Positions 12,241-23,887 of a stretch of DNA of 32,432 nt are shown here, in pieces (position 1 is the stretch's first letter; each line of letters opens with the position of its first letter). The translations under genes were made by a program, and so were the position numbers. Location of the stretch: positions 1 to 32,432 of IMG/VR virus record IMGVR_UViG_3300010011_000013, one strand, 5' to 3'. A model generated the notes under the pieces. That model did not search any database. It was not told the DNA's origin and saw only the letters and a list, made by a program, of their open reading frames with translations. This stretch comes from a virus (taxonomy: Duplodnaviria; Caudoviricetes).

Positions 12241-12441
12241 CTAACTGACCGTGGCCGCGGCTTCAGCCTTAGCGGCTTCCTCTTGCTGCCAGCGTTCAAA
12301 GTCGGCCCGAACTGCGGGGTCCTCGAAGTACTTGCGGACGGCTCTCACGACAGACCGGGCGAGGCTGTCCACCTGATAGCCGGGGATCGACTGTGGGGCT
12401 ATCGGGGCATTGGTGACGACGGTTGCCCGTAGTGTTTTCAT
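12241..12441 (-). CDS. Hypothetical protein (66 aa)
   Basis: GGAGAGGAG RBS before ATG 12441; YFEDP.V...FE.W motif. Confidence 0.7.
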   Translation of the reverse strand: MKTLRATVVTNAPIAPQSIPGYQVDSLARSVVRAVRKYFEDPAVRADFERWQQEEAAKAEAAATVS

Positions 12442-12542
12442 CCGGATTCTCCTCTCCAAAATCACGTGTGCCTTTGTGTCTAGGGATCTCTCCGCTTCCC
12501 GTCGAAGCCTGTCTGCGGGCGTCGACTAAGGAGATGGTTGTC

Positions 12543-12785
12543 TTGGGTGATCTGAACCTTCGTTCGCTATTCGGTGATGATGTCACTGAGTACAAGTGCC
12601 CGAATTGCGGTCATCAGGTCCGGTTCAAGACTCTGGATGCCCTTGAACACGGCGTGAAAGTTGATTGTCCGGGTTGCGGCCAAACCATCAACATTGAGCC
12701 GGAAGCAGAGGCGGGCCAGAGTCTGAGGCAAGCCAATAAGGCTTTGAGGGACTTCGAGAAGACTGTCAAGCGTTTCGGTAAGTAG
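12543..12785 (+). CDS. Small zinc-ribbon protein, antisense to early operon
   Basis: CPNCG...CPGCG; AAGGAG RBS before TTG 12543; convergent stop 3 bp from neighbour. Confidence 0.75.
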   Translation: MGDLNLRSLFGDDVTEYKCPNCGHQVRFKTLDALEHGVKVDCPGCGQTINIEPEAEAGQSLRQANKALRDFEKTVKRFGK

Positions 12786-13272: not shown

Positions 13273-13485
13273 TTACTGGGATTGCGTGTCGGGTGCTTCT
13301 TCGGGCTTCAGTAGGTCATCAATGGTGCAGCCCAGGGCTTTGGCGATGTCCGGCAGTTTGTCAGCAGTGGGCAGCCGAAGACCAGATTCCCACATAGCTA
13401 CTGCCGGTTGCTCGACGCCAACTAATGAGGCGAGTTGCTCTTGCGTCAGCCTAGCCTTCTTGCGGAGGCGTTTAAGCGCGATCAC
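13273..13485 (-). CDS. cro: Cro-like XRE HTH regulator
   Basis: LTQEQLA..VGV.Q.AVAMWESG.R.P; divergent from cI; GGAGGTGA RBS before GTG 13485. Confidence 0.9.
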   Translation of the reverse strand: MIALKRLRKKARLTQEQLASLVGVEQPAVAMWESGLRLPTADKLPDIAKALGCTIDDLLKPEEAPDTQSQ

Positions 13486-13505
13486 GTCTAGTTCACCTCC
13501 CACTA

Positions 13506-13604
13506 ATTATTGCGCAACGCAATAATATAACGGTTCGGAATGCCCGTCAATACATTTTGCTATAATTCCGCGCGTAGTATTAACGAATATCACCGTAGGT
13601 GATA
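13506..13604. promoter_or_regulatory. Lysis-lysogeny switch: divergent promoters and 17 bp operators
   Basis: Minus strand TTGACG-17-TATTAT (13550-13522); plus strand TGcTATAAT (13558-13566); palindromes TATTGCG-CAA-CGCAATA (13508-13524) and TATCACC-GTA-GGTGATA (13588-13604). Confidence 0.8.
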
Positions 13605-13629
13605 GGATTGCACCGAAAGAGGGATTACG

Positions 13630-14358
13630 GTGAACAGGCTAAGACAGTTAAGAACCGCACGGAAAATGAGCCAGCAGGACCTTGCGAATGCCCTCAACGT
13701 AGCTCAGGGGACTGTGAGCAATTGGGAAAACGGCGTTAGAGGTATTGACGCTACGATGCTGTCAACGCTGGCTGATTTCTTCGGGGTGTCCGTTGATTAC
13801 CTCTTGGGCCGCACTGACGATCCTACCGATTATGAGGACCCGGACCTGCTCTCAAACATAAAGCCAGAAATACTGGAGCACTGTGGCGGCAATCCCCGCA
13901 AGGCGTTAATTATGCAACGGGCAATTGAACGCGAAGCGATGTCGGACCCTTCCTTTTACGAGGACACTGTTCCGATTCCCATCCTTGGCAGAGTTCAGGC
14001 CGGAGTGCCGGTTGAAGCCGTGGAGGACATCATTGGTTACGAGAAGATACCGGCGGACATGGCGATGCTGGGCAAGCACTTTGCCCTCCAGGTTAAGGGT
14101 GACAGCATGTCGCCTCGTATCTGCGAAGGTGACATAGTGATAGTTCGACGGCAGAGTTCTGCAGAAAACGGAGACATCGTTGTCGTCTTGGTGAACGGGG
14201 AGGACGCCACAGTAAAGCGGTTTTTCAAATCGGAGCAGGGAATTACGTTGGTACCACTCAATCCTACCTATGAACCGCTATTCTTCTCATCATCAGAAGT
14301 AGAACGTTTGCCTGTTATCGTCATCGGCAAAGTCGTGGAGATGCGAAGAAAGATGTAG
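13630..14358 (+). CDS. cI: CI-like repressor (XRE HTH + S24 peptidase)
   Basis: N-terminal HTH; RVQAG cleavage site; GDSM catalytic Ser; TVKR catalytic Lys. Confidence 0.93.
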   Translation: MNRLRQLRTARKMSQQDLANALNVAQGTVSNWENGVRGIDATMLSTLADFFGVSVDYLLGRTDDPTDYEDPDLLSNIKPEILEHCGGNPRKALIMQRAIEREAMSDPSFYEDTVPIPILGRVQAGVPVEAVEDIIGYEKIPADMAMLGKHFALQVKGDSMSPRICEGDIVIVRRQSSAENGDIVVVLVNGEDATVKRFFKSEQGITLVPLNPTYEPLFFSSSEVERLPVIVIGKVVEMRRKM

Positions 14359-14961: not shown

Positions 14962-16511
14962 AAGCCGTTATCTACGCCCGATACTCACCTGGTCCTGATC
15001 AACGTGAGGAATCCATTGAAGGCCAGATTCGGGAATGCACGGAGTATGCGGAACGTCACGGCATAACCGTTGTAGGCCATTACGCTGACCGCGGTATCAG
15101 TGGCCGCACCGACAACCGGGCAGAGTTCCAGCGGATGCTTAAGGACTGTGAGAAGCGCCTCTTTGACGCGATCATTGTGTGGAAGATCAATCGGTTCGGC
15201 CGTAACCGTGAAGAGATCGCGATCAACAAGGTGCGCTGCCGTAAACACGGCGTAAAGGTCCTCTACGCGAAGGAGCACATACCTGACGGCCCCGAGGGCA
15301 TTATCCTTGAAAGCGTTTTGGAGGGCATGGCTGAGTACTACTCTGCTAATCTTGCCCAGGACGTAAAGCGCGGGATGAAGGAGAACGCTCTCAAATGCAT
15401 GTCTGCGGGTGGGACAACCTTATTTGGATATCAGATAGGCCAAGACCGGCACTACGAAATCCATCCCACCAACGGTCCTGTAATGCAGTGGGCTTTCGAG
15501 CAGTACGACAGCGGCAGAAGCATGACGGACATAGTAAATGAGATAAATGCCAGGGGTATAAAGTCAGCTACAGGCAAGCCATTCACAACGAATAGCCTTC
15601 GAACCGCACTCCGAAATCGAAAGTATACCGGCGTCTTCATCTTTGATGACGTGGAGATTGAAGGCGGCATGCCGGCCCTCGTCGAAAAGGACCGCTTTGA
15701 GAGGGTGCAGAGGAGGTTGGACATGAACAGACGCGCTCCAGCCCGTAACAAGGCTAAGGTAGACTACCTGCTGACCGGAAAGGTGTTCTGCGGTCACTGC
15801 AGTGCACCGATGTTAGGGGAGAGCGGAACCGGACGCGGCGGCAAGACCTACAACTACTATAAGTGCGGCAAGGCCAAAAAAGACCATACGTGTAATAAGA
15901 GATCCGAACGCAAGGAGTGGCTAGAGGACCTGGTTGTCCGGGAGACCGTGGAGAAGGTTCTCGTCGATGACGTCATTGACATGATCGCGGAGAACGTTGA
16001 GAGGATTCAGGAAGAGGAGCGAAAAGACAGTGACCTCCAATACCACGAAGAGCGCTTGGCCGGCACCGAGAAGGCCATACACAATCTTCTGAAGGCCATT
16101 GAGCAAGGCATTTTCACGCCCTCCACCAAGGACCGGTTGGATGAGTTGGAGCAAGAGAAAGCGGAGATAGAGAGTGCTATTCTTCAGGCGAAGTCAGTCA
16201 CTAGAGTGACTGTGACCAAGGCTCAGGTCAGATATTGGCTAAAGAGGTTTCAGGCGGGCGACATCAATGATCCCGAATACCGCCAGCGTCTCATAGAAAC
16301 GTTCGTGAATGCGATTTCCGTGTATGACGAAGGCTCTGACCAGGGCAATAGTGACAAGAAGATTGTTATCACCTATAATTACACAGGTGGGGAAACCACG
16401 GTTACTGGTTCGGATTTGACACAGGAATACCCACCAGTTCATTCTTATCCGAACCTCTTCTTCACGGATAAAGTCTTCGGCATAGTGATTAGAGCGGCAG
16501 TCGGGAAGTGA
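14958..16511 (+). CDS. int: Large serine recombinase (integrase)
   Basis: YARYS catalytic Ser, SIEGQ, D.GISG, RFGRN, recombinase domain, LLTGKVFCGHC zinc ribbon, coiled coil. Confidence 0.95.
   Translation: MKAVIYARYSPGPDQREESIEGQIRECTEYAERHGITVVGHYADRGISGRTDNRAEFQRMLKDCEKRLFDAIIVWKINRFGRNREEIAINKVRCRKHGVKVLYAKEHIPDGPEGIILESVLEGMAEYYSANLAQDVKRGMKENALKCMSAGGTTLFGYQIGQDRHYEIHPTNGPVMQWAFEQYDSGRSMTDIVNEINARGIKSATGKPFTTNSLRTALRNRKYTGVFIFDDVEIEGGMPALVEKDRFERVQRRLDMNRRAPARNKAKVDYLLTGKVFCGHCSAPMLGESGTGRGGKTYNYYKCGKAKKDHTCNKRSERKEWLEDLVVRETVEKVLVDDVIDMIAENVERIQEEERKDSDLQYHEERLAGTEKAIHNLLKAIEQGIFTPSTKDRLDELEQEKAEIESAILQAKSVTRVTVTKAQVRYWLKRFQAGDINDPEYRQRLIETFVNAISVYDEGSDQGNSDKKIVITYNYTGGETTVTGSDLTQEYPPVHSYPNLFFTDKVFGIVIRAAVGK
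16407..16455. other. Putative attP inside the integrase gene
   Basis: GGTTCGGAT (16407-16415) / ATCCGAACC (16447-16455) inverted repeat spanning 49 bp, centred at the start of CCACCA (16431-16436). Confidence 0.7.
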
Positions 16512-16751
16512 CTACCCCCTACCTTTCAGTAAACGCGCACAGTGTGATTCCTCCCGGTTCTGATCCGCTGATGCCATCTCGATCTTCGCAAGCGCTGCGC
16601 GTGCTCTCGGATCTGCCAAACAGCCTATGAGCCTCCTTGCGACCGTGCCGGCGTCCTCACCGACGAGCCATTTCGCCACGCTCTCCGTGGATAGCCCTAA
16701 TGAAGTTGCCAGCTCGCGGATTAACTCGTTGGTCGAGGGACTATGTTCCAT
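16512..16751 (-). CDS. Small hypothetical protein, HTH-like segment
   Basis: GGAGGGAG RBS; LATSLGLSTESVAKWL; stop abuts integrase stop. Confidence 0.65.
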   Translation of the reverse strand: MEHSPSTNELIRELATSLGLSTESVAKWLVGEDAGTVARRLIGCLADPRARAALAKIEMASADQNREESHCARLLKGRG

Positions 16752-16828
16752 GCCTCTCCCTCCAACGATTTAGCCATGTCGCATGGCAGCTTCTAGGTGA
16801 ACACTGGTAATCCCTGCCATGAAACAAT

Positions 16829-16872
16829 AATGCCCCCGATCGCAAGGATTGCTCCTCTCGGCCGGGGGCATT
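16829..16872 (-). terminator. Terminator at end of late/lysis operon
   Basis: AATGCCCCCG / CGGGGGCATT 10 bp stem, followed by ATTGTTT on minus strand; long loop. Confidence 0.65.
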
Positions 16873-16904
16873 GTAGTAGCGCAACGTTATTCCACGTGGG
16901 ATAT

Positions 16905-17245: not shown

Positions 17246-18508
17246 CTAGGCCCGCATTGCGAGTATGCCGAAAGCGATTCCGAGGGCGTATCTATCAAGC
17301 CACGCCGGTTCCTTGAGTAGCGCCCTGTCTGCCTTGTTGCTGAGGAAAGCCAATTCGACCAAGACTGCCGGCATTTGGGTGTAGCCCAGGATCATGTACT
17401 TGGCGGGGTCGATGCGTCTAAGAGGCAAGCCAGAAGCGATCCCGCTGTGGTGCATGATTGCCCTGGCAAGTGCCTCACCCTTTACCGAACCGGGCCAGTA
17501 GAACGCTTCGGCCCCCTCTGGCTCCTCCGAGCTGAACCAGTTTACATGGATGGAGATGTAATAGCCGGCGCCTGCGTCGTTACCGACTCTGGCTCTTGCC
17601 TTGATCTCTGCTTCGTCGTCAAGTCCAGGGGCCAAGTCCGTGTCAGTGGTGCGGGTAAGCACGACCTTGGCCCCTCCGCGCCGTAGGTATTCCGCCAGGC
17701 GGGTAGCGACATATAGAGTGATGACCTTTTCCTGAGTACCGTCCGGCCCGACACATCCCGGGTCCGGTCCGCCGTGGCCTGGATCGATGCAAACGATCAT
17801 CTGCTTGTCACCACCTTTCGGTTGGGGAGGTTGGGGAACCTCGGCTGGATGCTCGTCTACTAACTGCCTGAAAATAAGAGCGCAACATACCTGCCGCGAG
17901 GTATAGCCGATGAGTACCTTACCCGATGGGTCTATGGCCCCCACACTGCCGCCGCCATCGAGGCCGATAGCGTCACGACAACCGAGAGCTAGCATCTGGA
18001 AGGCTACTTGAGGGAGCGTTGCGGACATGGTTGCGTAGTGTACGAGACAGCCGTCATCGCGAATACCAATTGCTGCACGCTCGCGTTGTGAACCTTCCAT
18101 GAGGCCCGAGAAGCCGCAGCGAGATAATTCCGAAGTAATATTGGTGAGTCTACCGTCTCTCACCAGCCACGGCCCCGCACTAAACGCCCACCGTGCCGCT
18201 TTGATCTCCGCTTCGCTAGGCGCCTCCTTGATTACCACGCCGCCTACGCCGCCTGTGGCCATCATCACTGGCCACCGCGGATCGCCGGTAGTCCACACCT
18301 TACTGCCCTCGGCGATGAGCGACACTGACGGCCCGCTTGGCCCGGCTCGGTATTCCACGTTGACCGCACGTGCCCAGTCGCGAGTGACATACTTCGAGTA
18401 GCCGTCTGCGATCTGGCGGAGAGTCAAGCCCGAAGATTGCCCTGGTGTAAGGGGAGGGACGGCGAGGTCGACGTCTTCTGGCCTGGCGATTGTGATGAAA
18501 TCCATCAT
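17246..18508 (-). CDS. Endolysin: phosphodiester glycosidase (NAGPA-like) + Amidase_3
   Basis: AGPWLV.DG, RAAIGI, AIGLDGGGS in N-terminal domain; IDPGHGG.DPG, EK, ISIH.N, PAVLVE..F.SN in C-terminal domain. Confidence 0.9.
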   Translation of the reverse strand: MMDFITIARPEDVDLAVPPLTPGQSSGLTLRQIADGYSKYVTRDWARAVNVEYRAGPSGPSVSLIAEGSKVWTTGDPRWPVMMATGGVGGVVIKEAPSEAEIKAARWAFSAGPWLVRDGRLTNITSELSRCGFSGLMEGSQRERAAIGIRDDGCLVHYATMSATLPQVAFQMLALGCRDAIGLDGGGSVGAIDPSGKVLIGYTSRQVCCALIFRQLVDEHPAEVPQPPQPKGGDKQMIVCIDPGHGGPDPGCVGPDGTQEKVITLYVATRLAEYLRRGGAKVVLTRTTDTDLAPGLDDEAEIKARARVGNDAGAGYYISIHVNWFSSEEPEGAEAFYWPGSVKGEALARAIMHHSGIASGLPLRRIDPAKYMILGYTQMPAVLVELAFLSNKADRALLKEPAWLDRYALGIAFGILAMRA

Positions 18509-19082: not shown

Positions 19083-20690
19083 TTAGCCTCCTCTTGCGAT
19101 GAGTTGTACGAGTGCCTCTGTGTCGTCGGGTTGGTAGTCACCCAGTATGAGTTCAGTCACCGGAGGGCTCGCCAAGGGCCGATGCGTGATCTCCTGCACC
19201 ATCGCCAGCCACGGGTTCGCGTTGCCGTAGCCCCAGGGCGGATAGGCGATTGCTACGAGCTCGCCGAATCCGATTCTGGTGCAAAGTGGTATGCGGCACG
19301 TCAGCGAACGCTTCTCGACGCCGTGGACGGCGAGGTAAGCGTTAGCATATGACTGCGCGTAAGATTGGCTCGAACCGGCCGGCACGCTGATGCGGACCTC
19401 GATCCGCTTGTCGGCGGGGACCCCGGGCAGGCTTGCCGTGACCTCGATGAGCGGTTCCGAGCTCTCGACGTAACAGATGACATCTGTGACTTCCGGAGGT
19501 CTGATGCTAGGCGTAGGCTCATCGAGCATCTGGAGAATCAACGCCGCCAGGATGGTTAACTCTGAAAGGTATTGGTCGTCTGTTCCCGTACGCAGGAGTG
19601 TCACTCTTACTTGCATGGTAGTTGCGGAGCCAGTATCCACCAGCCCGGCGCAGGGTTGCCATGCGCCTGCGCCGATCTTGACCTCCAATGACGCCTGTAG
19701 ACCCGTGGTCAGCATCGAGACCAGCTTGGGACCAGAGTTATCGGTGATGTCTATGGCGGGGCTAGTCCACCGATGGAGCTCACCGATGAGCACGCTCAGA
19801 CGTGAGACAACGGGTGTGTCCTGTAGGTCTGGAGTAGCCGTCAGCGTTAGCCGGATCTGTAGATAGGCCGCTGTTGGTCCCGGCAGCGGCGCCCCGTTCT
19901 GAACCTCCAACCAGGCGCCGTATGTAGCTCCGTTATCAGCACTCCAGCGAACATGACATGCGATCCCGGACCCTGACGGCAGGGCGGCCTCGACCCAGGA
20001 CAACCAGCTGCTGGCCGGGCTTGCACCCTTCCCGTGCGCCAACCAGGGGCTGGTCCAAGTTCCTGAAGCAAAATACCCATTTTGGATCGTTAGGGTGATT
20101 CTCCCTCTGTAGGATTGTGTCACACCGTTCAACTGAAAATTGCCAGATAGCAGCGGGTTAGAGTCCTGTGACGTCCTTATGTACACGGTTCCGCTGGATG
20201 GCGTCGTATACCTCATTTGCACATAAACATCTTCGGTCAATACCACGTTCGGCTGTATAGAAAGGGCCGCCTCAAAGGTTGTCATTGACACCTCCGCCGA
20301 GAACAGCACCTCCCCATTACTTACCTTCACGAGTTCAAACGTGACAGGGATGGACCCAGCGGGGCGGTCGCAGTACCATCCGACGCGGGTCAGCATACCA
20401 CGGGCGGTAATCCGTTGCCTGGCTGTATAAGATGTGTTTGGAGCCATTGATTGATAACTGAAACTGCTAGCCGTAAAACTCGTCGTGTCAGCGGCCACGG
20501 ATAGTTGATTGCCCGCAACGGCGGTCTGGGCCTTTGTCCCGGCGTTCCAATCGGCATCCAATAGATACTGCTTGATATAGTCGGCAGTAGGGACAATATC
20601 CCCCGGCCTGCTGGTCAGGTCCAACCCTTCGGACGTTCCCGATTGCCAGTCAGCCTGCGAGGTGTACTTCTTGATGAGATCGCCTGGCAT
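19083..20690 (-). CDS. Tail tip / receptor-binding protein with hub-like C-terminal part
   Basis: 535 aa beta-rich; repeated DW..GT and WTSP motifs; last large tail gene. Confidence 0.75.
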   Translation of the reverse strand: MPGDLIKKYTSQADWQSGTSEGLDLTSRPGDIVPTADYIKQYLLDADWNAGTKAQTAVAGNQLSVAADTTSFTASSFSYQSMAPNTSYTARQRITARGMLTRVGWYCDRPAGSIPVTFELVKVSNGEVLFSAEVSMTTFEAALSIQPNVVLTEDVYVQMRYTTPSSGTVYIRTSQDSNPLLSGNFQLNGVTQSYRGRITLTIQNGYFASGTWTSPWLAHGKGASPASSWLSWVEAALPSGSGIACHVRWSADNGATYGAWLEVQNGAPLPGPTAAYLQIRLTLTATPDLQDTPVVSRLSVLIGELHRWTSPAIDITDNSGPKLVSMLTTGLQASLEVKIGAGAWQPCAGLVDTGSATTMQVRVTLLRTGTDDQYLSELTILAALILQMLDEPTPSIRPPEVTDVICYVESSEPLIEVTASLPGVPADKRIEVRISVPAGSSQSYAQSYANAYLAVHGVEKRSLTCRIPLCTRIGFGELVAIAYPPWGYGNANPWLAMVQEITHRPLASPPVTELILGDYQPDDTEALVQLIARGG

Positions 20691-20691
20691 G

Positions 20692-22287
20692 CTACTCTCC
20701 CTCCCCGTAACGCACGATGACGCCCTGGGCGGTCAAGGTGGTCGGATCTACGACGTGGCAGACCCAATCCAGCACGTCAGTTTCGACCCACCAGCGGAGG
20801 CCCCAGACCTTCATGCACTCACGGAATAAATCCACCACGGGCTTGCCCCGCAGCATCAGGTTGCCGATAATGCCAAGCGGGTTTGGGATGCCAGCGCTCA
20901 GAACCGGAGCGCAGTATGTGTCAATCGCAGTCACCATAGATGTGCCGATGTCCTGCTCAGGATAGTCCGCTTTAAGGATTCTCTCGGCCAGCACCTTGTC
21001 GCCGAGGGCCGCAACGATCTCCAAAGTGACGTCGCCAGGGTTCTTCTGCCAAACTCGGCCTCTATACTGCATCTGAGCGCCAGTGGAGTCATAGATGCTC
21101 ACGTCTACCGTATCGCCGTAGGCTATGCGATCGTCATTGCGGACACCGTGTTCATCGGGCCAGTTGGCGATGACGAATGAGATGGTGCCTATCTTGCCAT
21201 TACAGGTGAGGTTGACTGCCAGATCCAAACAGGCATATGGCGTGTCCTCGACAAACAATGAATAGCCCTCTTGGGCGACAACGCTCAGCACCACCCTCAA
21301 CGTCCAGATACTAGACAGGAGCCCATAACCCCAGTTGTCGATAGGCTGGACAGTCCAGTAATAGACGCCGATCGGCAGGGGGGCTTGGAGGGTATAGCGT
21401 ACCCTGGTGCCATCAGGAACTCCCGCAAGCAGCATGGGCTTCCACGTCGTTCCATCCAAATACTCCCAGCCCGCTTGGTCTAGCGACGAGTCAATCTCAA
21501 TTGGCTCAGCCATTGTGGGGCTACCGCTCACGGCTAGTTTGGCGTGGAAACGGTCGGCGGCGCTGTCCTCATGGCCCCTCATAACAAGTTCAAAAACAAC
21601 AGCAGGCTCATCGGTCATGGACTGATTCTTCGGGGCCTCCCTGTCTGGGGTAGGCGGGTAAGGTTCATAGGTGTACTCAATCTCAACGTCAACTGTCTTA
21701 GAGCCATCCACATTGACCAGAATATTATTACTGCCGCCCGTAAGCAAACCTGCTGCTATGTCATACCAATCACCGACCACGCCATCCCCCAAGGTAGCCC
21801 CCGTAATAACGTGTCCGCCCACGGTGATCTTAGGAGACGTAGACGGCGCAGGCCCCTTCGCATATGTCGTTGCTGAGCGGGTTTCGTTTGATGCACCAGG
21901 GAAACTGCCGCTGGTGAGTGTTATCCCGGTAGTCATGGAACCATAGCCGTCGCAGCTGGTCGAGACTGTGACGCGTTGACTAGCACCAGCCCCCAAGCTG
22001 AAATGTGTCGTATTAGAGCCCCCGGGTGCAGAAACACTAATATAGCCTACCGAACCTCCCGGACCGCCAGTCAAGGTGACGCTATATGAACAATGGCCTC
22101 CAGTAATCTCGAAGCCATACGGAGGAGAGGGGAACTGACCAGTGTAGGACGTTTCCGACCACGTCACGATTTTGGTGATGCCCCGGAAGCGCACCCGTCC
22201 GCTGTTTGCCCTAGTGCCTGGGATGTTGACGACCAGAGTCCCGCCGTTATTGGCTGTCCTCCATCCTGTGCTATCCGTGACCGCCAT
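20692..22287 (-). CDS. Tail tip protein: G/S/T-rich beta domains + hub-like C-terminal part
   Basis: Follows Dit position; YYWTVQ..D FN3/Ig-like motif; GDTV.V....YRGRV hub-like pattern. Confidence 0.75.
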   Translation of the reverse strand: MAVTDSTGWRTANNGGTLVVNIPGTRANSGRVRFRGITKIVTWSETSYTGQFPSPPYGFEITGGHCSYSVTLTGGPGGSVGYISVSAPGGSNTTHFSLGAGASQRVTVSTSCDGYGSMTTGITLTSGSFPGASNETRSATTYAKGPAPSTSPKITVGGHVITGATLGDGVVGDWYDIAAGLLTGGSNNILVNVDGSKTVDVEIEYTYEPYPPTPDREAPKNQSMTDEPAVVFELVMRGHEDSAADRFHAKLAVSGSPTMAEPIEIDSSLDQAGWEYLDGTTWKPMLLAGVPDGTRVRYTLQAPLPIGVYYWTVQPIDNWGYGLLSSIWTLRVVLSVVAQEGYSLFVEDTPYACLDLAVNLTCNGKIGTISFVIANWPDEHGVRNDDRIAYGDTVDVSIYDSTGAQMQYRGRVWQKNPGDVTLEIVAALGDKVLAERILKADYPEQDIGTSMVTAIDTYCAPVLSAGIPNPLGIIGNLMLRGKPVVDLFRECMKVWGLRWWVETDVLDWVCHVVDPTTLTAQGVIVRYGEGE

Positions 22288-22664
22288 CAGTACACCACCT
22301 CACCGGTAATCGCGTCGCGGAGATAGGGATCGAGCGCTGTGAACGTTGCTGGCACTATCCAACCCGAACCACCCTTCAGTCGCTCCTCGTCGCCCAACTC
22401 CAGAACAACTCGGTCGTAGTAGTGACTGTCAACCCCAGTCTGGTCGACATAAAGGCGCGCCTCCGTGTGCATAAGATCAGCTCGCTTCAACGCGACAAGG
22501 TCCTCCCACGAGAGGACCGTTATCGTGCATGTGAGCCTGGTCGGGCTCCTCCCGAAGTAGGTAGAATCCGCCTCATCCAATCGAGGGTACTCTGTAACGT
22601 GGTACTTCTTGATGTTCTTTGTGCGTATCTGACTCGCAAGTATCGTTATGTCCGCGTACCTCAT
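22287..22664 (-). CDS. Distal tail protein-like (minimal, 125 aa)
   Basis: Directly after TMP; ends with F.A.DPY motif typical of Dit N-domain. Confidence 0.7.
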   Translation of the reverse strand: MRYADITILASQIRTKNIKKYHVTEYPRLDEADSTYFGRSPTRLTCTITVLSWEDLVALKRADLMHTEARLYVDQTGVDSHYYDRVVLELGDEERLKGGSGWIVPATFTALDPYLRDAITGEVVY

Positions 22665-23887
22665 GGCAGCACCCCCGGTCGCGCCAACCGCAGCCTGGTG
22701 ACCAGATCAGTGTTGCGTCGGTCCAAGACCTCGTCCAGTTGCCTAAGTGTCTGAGAGTCAACGGGGCCAGTGACATTGATCGTTTGGTTGATGGTTACCG
22801 AATCGGTGCCGAGCGGGCGTACCTGGGCCCCCGTGGGCAGCCAAGCGAGTTCGGGACCACGTTCTCCTACGAGAGCCCAGCCGGACCGGAGTATGTCACC
22901 CCCGCTAGCAAGGGCGGGCATGTCAGGGGTTGGGGTTGGAGCGGGAGTATAGGTGGCTTTCCCACCTCCGCCAAACACTTTTTTCAGCCAATCCCAGGCC
23001 CTCTGCGCCGCACCGATGACCTTGTCAATTGCGTTGAGCACACCGCCGATAATGTCGACAACGGTTCCGACGACCTTGCCTATTGTGCCAAAGACGACAC
23101 TGAACGTCTTCTCTATCTGCGGCATGTGCTCAACAATCCAATCGAGCACTTTTTGAAGAATGGGCAGGAAAGCCGTGGTGAGTTCTCGGAAGATGGCCCC
23201 AAACCCGTCTTTCACGTCCGCCAGTGTGTCTCCGAATTGGACGTTGGCCTTAACAGCTTCCTCAGACATTACGATGCCCAGTTCATCGGCGCGGTTTTTG
23301 AGTTCTTCCATACCCGCACTACCGGCATTAAGAAGTGGCAGGAGTTCCGTGTATGATTTGCCGAGGACATCGTTGCCAAGAGCGTTTCGCTGCGCGCCTT
23401 GCTCCATGTCGGCTAGGGCGGCCATCACGTCCTGGAAGACCGCCTCGGTGCTTCGAGCCGAACCGTCGGCATTTTGGAGGGATATGCCGAGAGCGTCGAA
23501 CGCCTCGCTGGCCGCCTTGTTGCCCTTCAAGGCCGCGTCCATAGTGTCGGACAGCTTCTTGATGCCGGTCTCGAGCACGTTGATGTCAGCACCCGACTGC
23601 CCGGCCGCGTACTTCCAGCGCTGAAGTTCCTCGATATTGATGCCGGTACGCTCGGAGAGCTTGTCTATCTTGTCGGCGTATTCGGCCGTCTTGTTTGCGG
23701 CGGCCAGCATACCGCCGACAACGGCCGTGGCCGCGCCGGCGATGCCCGCGCCCCACTTGGCGGCCGTCCCGATGCCCTTGGCTAGTTTCGACGTAAGGCC
23801 TTCTGCCTTTTCTTCGGTTTTCGCTATGGACTTATTGGCCTCTTCGTTGTCCACGAAGATGGAACCGAACAATCGGAATATCTCCAT
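22661..23887 (-). CDS. Tail tape measure protein (short, 408 aa)
   Basis: MEIFRLFGSI start, Ala/Gly-rich helical, LASGG...ALVGERGPE C-terminal motif. Confidence 0.9.
   Translation of the reverse strand: MEIFRLFGSIFVDNEEANKSIAKTEEKAEGLTSKLAKGIGTAAKWGAGIAGAATAVVGGMLAAANKTAEYADKIDKLSERTGINIEELQRWKYAAGQSGADINVLETGIKKLSDTMDAALKGNKAASEAFDALGISLQNADGSARSTEAVFQDVMAALADMEQGAQRNALGNDVLGKSYTELLPLLNAGSAGMEELKNRADELGIVMSEEAVKANVQFGDTLADVKDGFGAIFRELTTAFLPILQKVLDWIVEHMPQIEKTFSVVFGTIGKVVGTVVDIIGGVLNAIDKVIGAAQRAWDWLKKVFGGGGKATYTPAPTPTPDMPALASGGDILRSGWALVGERGPELAWLPTGAQVRPLGTDSVTINQTINVTGPVDSQTLRQLDEVLDRRNTDLVTRLRLARPGVLP

Follow-up and report, generated by a model that had tools for sequence, protein, structure and literature searches.

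Canonical large serine integrases have attP beside their gene, not inside it. In two tyrosine recombinase systems with long shared cores, IntP/IntR of Myxococcus phage Mx8 and the repressor of mycobacteriophage BPs, attP lies within the gene itself and integration rewrites the C-terminus of the product; the gene divided in BPs codes for the repressor. Among serine enzymes, two systems with a comparable layout have been published. In the Roseburia intestinalis phage Shimadzu, the integration site lies inside int, and the two forms of the integrase differ in their last 20-22 residues (bioRxiv 10.1101/575076). DsiB, a large serine recombinase of the Dehalococcoides ssrA islands, has a 3' end that always overlaps the att site at the end of the tmRNA gene (PMC3146451). 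An att site inside an integrase gene is therefore not new in kind. The available portions of three further papers (PMC12884075, PMC13626063 and PMC10083194) contain nothing on such a site in a serine integrase.

Here we describe a whole virus record of 32,432 bases (the window), which carries genes for replication, head, tail and lysis and in which no tRNA gene was found. We consider it highly probable that the window is a free temperate phage with attP in the last 34 codons of its own serine integrase gene, and that relatives residing at the 3' ends of tRNA and tmRNA genes have shed a conserved tail of 24 residues, the likely switch between insertion and excision. The lysis genes are oriented toward the 3' end of the integrase gene, the arrangement of a temperate phage in its excised state. 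The coordinates of the site and of the associated features are collected in Table 1.

Table 1. Features of the integration module of the window and the evidence for each
Feature	Position	Strand	Evidence
Large serine integrase gene, free-phage (attP) form, 517 aa	14958..16511	+	Pfam Resolvase 3-144, Recombinase 171-255, Zn_ribbon_recom 271-328; phrog_95 integrase
P arm of attP with motif GGTTCGGAT; GTTCG occupies positions 24-20 counted from the centre; coding for GSDLTQEY	16407..16431	+	Conserved in 96 distinct frame-0 relatives; retained by all integrated forms
Inferred crossover dinucleotide CC, equivalent to tRNA positions 71-72	16431..16432	+	18 junction pairs; L172
Phage-borne ACCA, gives the tRNA back its discriminator base and CCA at attL	16433..16436	+	Consensus of P' and B' arms; all 18 attL junctions (CCA demanded by the search pattern)
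attP P' arm, ATCCGAACC, motif at positions 23-19	16432..16455	+	Inverted repeat; found after tRNA 3' ends in 45/50 genomes, 0 in reversed-pattern control
24-codon tail, free form only; predicted beta-hairpin (residues 500-502, 507-514)	16437..16508	+	Homologue conservation; pN/pS 0.17; AlphaFold2
TTCGG (Phe-Gly codons), third motif copy; RNA pairing with the P' arm in many relatives, weak here	16476..16480	+	Window fold z = +0.88
66-aa unnamed protein, candidate recombination directionality factor (RDF)	12241..12441	-	Linkage to family integrases
Cro-like regulator (13273-13503, minus) and CI-like regulator (13630-14358, plus), upstream of the integrase	13273..14358		Pfam/PHROG

The integrase scores above the Pfam cut-off for serine catalytic, recombinase and zinc-ribbon domains, the last with an inserted coiled coil. 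S10 and four Cys residues are invariant across 35 aligned integrase rows, and structure comparison matches the fold to that of canonical large serine integrases. No second serine recombinase was detected with Pfam or PHROG among the 34 window proteins scanned. Several other genes of the window are recorded here in their own right. A 79-aa ORF on the minus strand (16512-16751) ends flush with the integrase stop; it has a weak match to a transcriptional-regulator family (E 0.02) and no homologue in the fetched loci. A small ORF with two zinc ribbons (12423-12785, plus strand) runs against the early genes and is 91% identical in the related provirus L001. The endolysin (17246-18508, minus strand) has an unusual N-terminal phosphodiester-glycosidase (NAGPA) domain ahead of Amidase_3, and a short tape-measure-like gene of 408 aa (22664-23887, minus strand) is followed by two 530-aa genes without a Pfam or PHROG match (19083-22287, minus strand).

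The site was first proposed, in a sequence-only reading, from a perfect 9-bp inverted repeat centred at the hexamer CCACCA. The repeat is indeed perfect (GGTTCGGAT at 16407-16415 and ATCCGAACC at 16447-16455, 100% complementary with 31 nt between) and delimits a 49-bp site, but it is centred on 16431, the C with which the hexamer begins, and not on the hexamer's middle. The assignment of CCACCA (16431-16436) to Pro492-Pro493, with 24 residues after it in the 517-aa ORF, can be read directly from the gene. By itself the repeat does not rise above chance: the window contains 21 perfect 9-bp inverted repeats whose spacers do not exceed 40 nt, and after codon shuffling 16% of integrase genes (n=300) contain one. 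Its meaning derives instead from its conservation in relatives and from the junctions that fall there.

Such junctions were found in close relatives. In L001, the integrase protein of which is 94% identical, the sequence matches the window up to 16436 and then diverges. L205 shows a junction of the L001 type, with tRNA-Leu(TAG) 29 nt downstream and then host genes. Two of the four runs compared with the window have contigs that leave it exactly after 16436. That of run X2 passes into L001 sequence; it is identical to L205 over the compared stretch, may come from the source of L205, and is not independent of L001 and L205. That of run X3, with one mismatch over 16055-16436 (382 bases), continues into a different sequence. 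Prophage junctions elsewhere, for example at 16752-16900, had been named as an outcome that would speak against the site, and the junctions of L001 and of contigs from two runs map to CCACCA. No contig spanning 16437-16821 was present in the four runs compared with the window. The phage's own attL and attB were not found in viral scans (none in the first, only the L001 record in the second), in the four runs compared with the window or in four compared with L205, and L047, the start of provirus G001 (a record 74% complete), has no att site in its first 600 bases.

Two further observations concern the surroundings of the crossover. At 16822, contigs from two runs join the window from other sequence, beside a terminator-like hairpin (16824-16877); this loose end is likely a module boundary between the lysis and integration modules in related phages. 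Also, a sigma-70-like promoter (GTGACA-17-TATAAT, 11/12; 16351-16379, plus strand) lies in the integrase 3' end, directed across the crossover, and is present in L001 as well; in a lysogen it would face the downstream tRNA-Leu, which integration parts from its neighbour. As a family-wide feature this promoter-like site was rejected, since only 3 of 128 loci reach 11/12, two of them being the window and L001.

The family was surveyed through the best 120 of at least 7,995 integrase homologues. What follows Pro-Pro in these is either a conserved tail, some 25 residues long (a motif fits 71 of the 120), or unrelated sequence. At the DNA level, the right-arm motif was present in 51 of 169 loci scored, a few of these being chance or hairpin matches, with 44 of 92 in the viral set versus 7 of 77 genome loci. 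Integrated forms have 0 to 323 unrelated residues past Pro-Pro (median 18, n=95), and attP-type forms have a median of 25 (n=49). A tail retained by prophage homologues would have contradicted the proposal; in integrated forms it is absent, and unrelated residues stand in its place. A hairpin with a T-run directly follows the core or attR in 78 of 92 integrated-type loci. The integrated gene reads on into the sequence beyond the tRNA, in most cases a terminator.

A search pattern made of a tRNA 3' end followed by the right arm matched in 45 of 50 genomes, with up to 11 matches each and none for the reversed control; the 50 are the genomes with an integrase, out of 80 genome loci, and among genomes picked in this way the elements are common. 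From Clostridia genomes, we chose 18 junction pairs in which the junction lies on the same contig as the integrase, upstream of it and in line with it. The pattern required CGAAC and CCA, but neither an open frame nor the FG motif. Joining the two ends gave an in-frame tail of the conserved kind, 21-53 residues long, in all 18 pairs, although the integrated genes themselves end in 0-120 unrelated residues; the rebuilt tails carry the motif [PS]N..FG in 17 cases and belong to a second frame class in one. Together with the divergence of close relatives after CCACCA, these rebuilt tails bear out the earlier proposal that integration swaps the last ~24 residues and gives rise to two forms of the integrase. 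The proposed target, the 3' end of a tRNA or tmRNA gene, was likewise recovered in relatives: ARAGORN called 15 of the 18 junctions (seven Leu, two tmRNA, two Pro, one each of Lys, Ala and Arg, and one more Leu).

The dinucleotide at tRNA positions 71-72 is identical at both ends in 18/18 pairs (CC, GC, GG, CG or GT), and in ten of them the identity between attL and attR begins exactly there. A further relative, L172, diverges directly after CC. From the pairs and L172, which bound it, we infer that the crossover is the CC at 16431-16432, in which case Pro-Pro is kept in both forms of the enzyme. The ACCA supplied by the phage keeps the tRNA whole after integration.

Insertion in the opposite orientation was seen at 4 of 169 loci (L048, L091, L110 and L130), three of which (L048, L091 and L130) have GG at the crossover position; a loose pattern for reverse-orientation junctions, and an attR pattern, gave matches only at the control level. 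Two complete Faecalibacterium chromosomes (G032:C1 and G021:C1) hold 10 and 11 tRNA-end junctions with a P' arm, most of them paired with an integrase and bounding elements of about 3 to 33 kb. In G032, eight of the ten junctions are paired with a same-strand family integrase within 33 kb. In seven relatives (L014, L016, L095, L118, L176, L195 and L196) the att site is in another reading frame, with the core read as Ser-Thr, and a hydrophobic tail with a Val-Phe motif is kept. Four others (L131, L146, L203 and L019) have frameshifted or stop-containing P'-like arms after the integrase ends, possibly representing insertions into an already occupied site.

Counted from the crossover, GTTCG starts at position 24 in the P arm, at 23 in P' and at 19 in the tRNA arm; the B' arm has no motif and shares ACCA alone. 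In large serine integrases, attB carries the motif read by DBD2, the zinc-ribbon domain, 5 bp further inward than attP does (PMC3783163). The shift from P to the tRNA arm is the same 5 bp (24 to 19), and under this rule the tRNA T-loop most likely serves as the attB motif. DBD2 would then recognize GGTTCG both in attP and in the T-loop, which would enable one family to use many tRNAs. The 4-bp shift of P' and the motif-less B' arm depart from the symmetric textbook site.

Conservation of the tail was analysed in 31 sequences of one length class. In the unpaired loop, pN/pS is 0.17 in frame versus 1.08 and 2.52 out of frame; the ratio is 0.50 after the stem and 1.56 in the first three tail codons. 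At residues 7 and 8 after Pro-Pro, the second codon positions are invariant T (31/31), and the spacing from the arm to the third motif keeps the frame in 51 of 54 cases, although the pairs are related and these counts not independent. Judged by these codon patterns, the tail is under protein-level selection. Part of its conservation is at the level of DNA or RNA. Pro is encoded by CCG in 29/29 and Phe by TTC in 27/30, and in many relatives the P' arm pairs with the Phe-Gly codons, the two arms co-varying through compensatory and G-U changes. The resulting hairpin, which is weak in the window (fold z +0.88), probably serves to terminate the tRNA transcript at attL.

AlphaFold2 places tail strands at residues 500-502 and 507-514, with a pLDDT of about 85 for 505-514 and under 50 for the linker before them, which is the att-encoded stretch. 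Structural alignments to the LI, SPbeta, Bxb1 and phiC31 integrases stop at residues 474-479, before the att codons, except for one Bxb1 row among the full-length rows that aligns to residue 507. The tail is thus predicted to be a beta-hairpin added past a complete canonical fold, and the integrated form would keep the whole canonical enzyme and lose the add-on. A Foldseek search against viral models returned integrases only and nothing on the tail. Covariation between the tail and DBD2 (79 rows, effective 53) gave scattered pairs, apparently driven by kinship and without a shuffled control, and was discarded.

The 66-aa ORF has no Pfam or PHROG match, and the ESM Atlas returned only unnamed clusters, at 0.87, but it has at least 4,596 homologues. 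A profile search found it in 14/14 whole elements, in 73 of the 80 viral loci that include 3 kb of upstream sequence and in 20 of 58 genome loci, where only about 4 kb of flank was read; 25 loci with distant serine recombinases gave no match. Of 15 matches in three complete or near-complete chromosomes, 14 are located upstream of a family integrase, at most 32 kb away and on the opposite strand, as in the window, and homologues are present in Shimadzu (orf36) and FP_Epona. The protein appears to travel with these integrases, and this linkage makes it a candidate RDF.

The tail, present in one form of the enzyme and absent from the other, likely switches the integrase between insertion and excision. 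The RDF has been shown to bind DBD2 and the coiled-coil hinge (PMC11722253). According to predictions, most RDFs extend the DBD2 sheet by one beta strand, and some integrases have C-terminal strands that could obstruct this site (PMC12286644). Strand addition and its blocking together favour the tail as a plug. The hairpin would occupy the docking edge for excision factors on the DBD2 sheet, and with this edge plugged the free-phage enzyme would integrate even with the factor present. Integration at a tRNA end would delete the plug from the integrase gene, and the prophage enzyme would then bind the factor, probably the 66-aa protein (12241-12441), and excise. We hold this mechanism tentatively, as the most likely one, ahead of readings in which the tail governs stability or activity or is a neutral peptide. 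Effects on stability have been suggested for Shimadzu by analogy to mycobacteriophages (bioRxiv 10.1101/575076), and it is possible, if less probable, that the tail sets the amount of enzyme and not its direction, one form being degraded or misfolded faster. The integrated forms do carry random and often hydrophobic ends translated from terminator sequence, or in some cases finish at Pro-Pro-stop, and loss of the hairpin could expose a hydrophobic sheet edge. Yet the canonical fold is complete without the tail, the conserved tail residues are internal and beta-patterned, and the final residues vary (AAVGK, EEVG, FTRK). A tail with varying last residues is unlike a terminal degradation tag.

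We regard it as unlikely that full catalytic or synaptic activity depends on the tail, which might for instance offset the motif-less B' arm, and that a weak prophage enzyme thereby stabilizes lysogens. The Mx8 integrase reportedly loses activity on integration, and B' indeed lacks the motif, but the tail-less form keeps all canonical domains and excision must start from the tail-less gene. While DsiB has been suggested to be fully functional only on the circle (PMC3146451), the Shimadzu prophage excises and blooms (bioRxiv 10.1101/575076). Least favoured, and very improbable, is that the tail is a by-product, with P' conserved as DNA and RNA (a binding arm and a hairpin ending the tRNA transcript at attL) and the peptide neutral. 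The co-varying arms, often followed by T-runs, and the fixed CCG and TTC codons would be expected from this, but not the low in-frame pN/pS in the unpaired loop, the maintained frame or the length near 25 codons. Moreover, the subfamily with att in another frame retains a similar hydrophobic VF tail, and the window keeps the peptide motif without a stable hairpin. Returning to the plug, a wider version of it is doubtful when taken as a whole: the attP hairpin would be a self-deleting plug of the excision-factor site, a tRNA-targeting family with about ten copies in one Faecalibacterium chromosome would set direction by self-editing, and an unnamed small-protein family of more than 4,500 members would be its RDF.

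If the tail does gate direction, it would answer a question posed in PMC12286644, namely how excision is controlled in integrases with C-terminal strands over the RDF site. Prophage-derived genes are without the tail, so genome-mined integrases would be the wrong form for integration assays. Additionally, because the family most likely reads the near-universal tRNA T-loop and ACCA, with the target chosen largely by two bases, it is a candidate insertion tool for native tRNA ends in gut Clostridia.

Compared with the canonical integrases (Listeria LI/A118, SPbeta SprA, Bxb1 and phiC31), the window enzyme has the same domain order and fold, and the systems likewise share a site of roughly 50 bp and a 2-bp crossover. 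The inward shift of the DBD2 motif in attB agrees with the published 5 bp for P against the tRNA arm, but is 4 bp for P'. The LI attB has the motif in both arms (PMC3783163), and here it is in the tRNA arm only. The solved structures of the canonical enzymes stop at the point where the att codons start in the window integrase. Mx8, the precedent cited in the sequence-only reading, does share the layout of attP within int, but the window integrase is of the serine family, unlike that of Mx8, and the nearest precedent is the same-family integrase of Shimadzu (LR596903 orf31), with 44.8% identity over residues 1-511. The Shimadzu attP has the same geometry of arm, 15 nt, core, 10 nt and arm; its free-form tail is homologous to that of the window, with a common motif, and its orf36 is the homologue of the 66-aa candidate. 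The core differs (GCACTC versus CCACCA), as does the source, a gut host for Shimadzu and digester or bioreactor samples for the window phage, runs with small word shares being excluded as habitat evidence. DsiB is alike in layout; it works with a second recombinase, DsiA, on non-phage islands, and it points toward the tmRNA and reads the antisense strand (PMC3146451), as only 4/169 loci do here. The closest integrated relatives of the window read instead into sequence downstream of the tRNA. The literature searched, outside subscription journals and bioRxiv supplements, does not describe the T-loop reading, selection on the tail or the candidate RDF, and the accessible text of the Shimadzu paper neither maps the crossover nor presents a T-loop reading, a test of selection or an RDF (bioRxiv 10.1101/575076). 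To the layout already described for Shimadzu and DsiB, the present analysis adds the exact crossover, the T-loop reading, the test of selection on the tail and a candidate factor.
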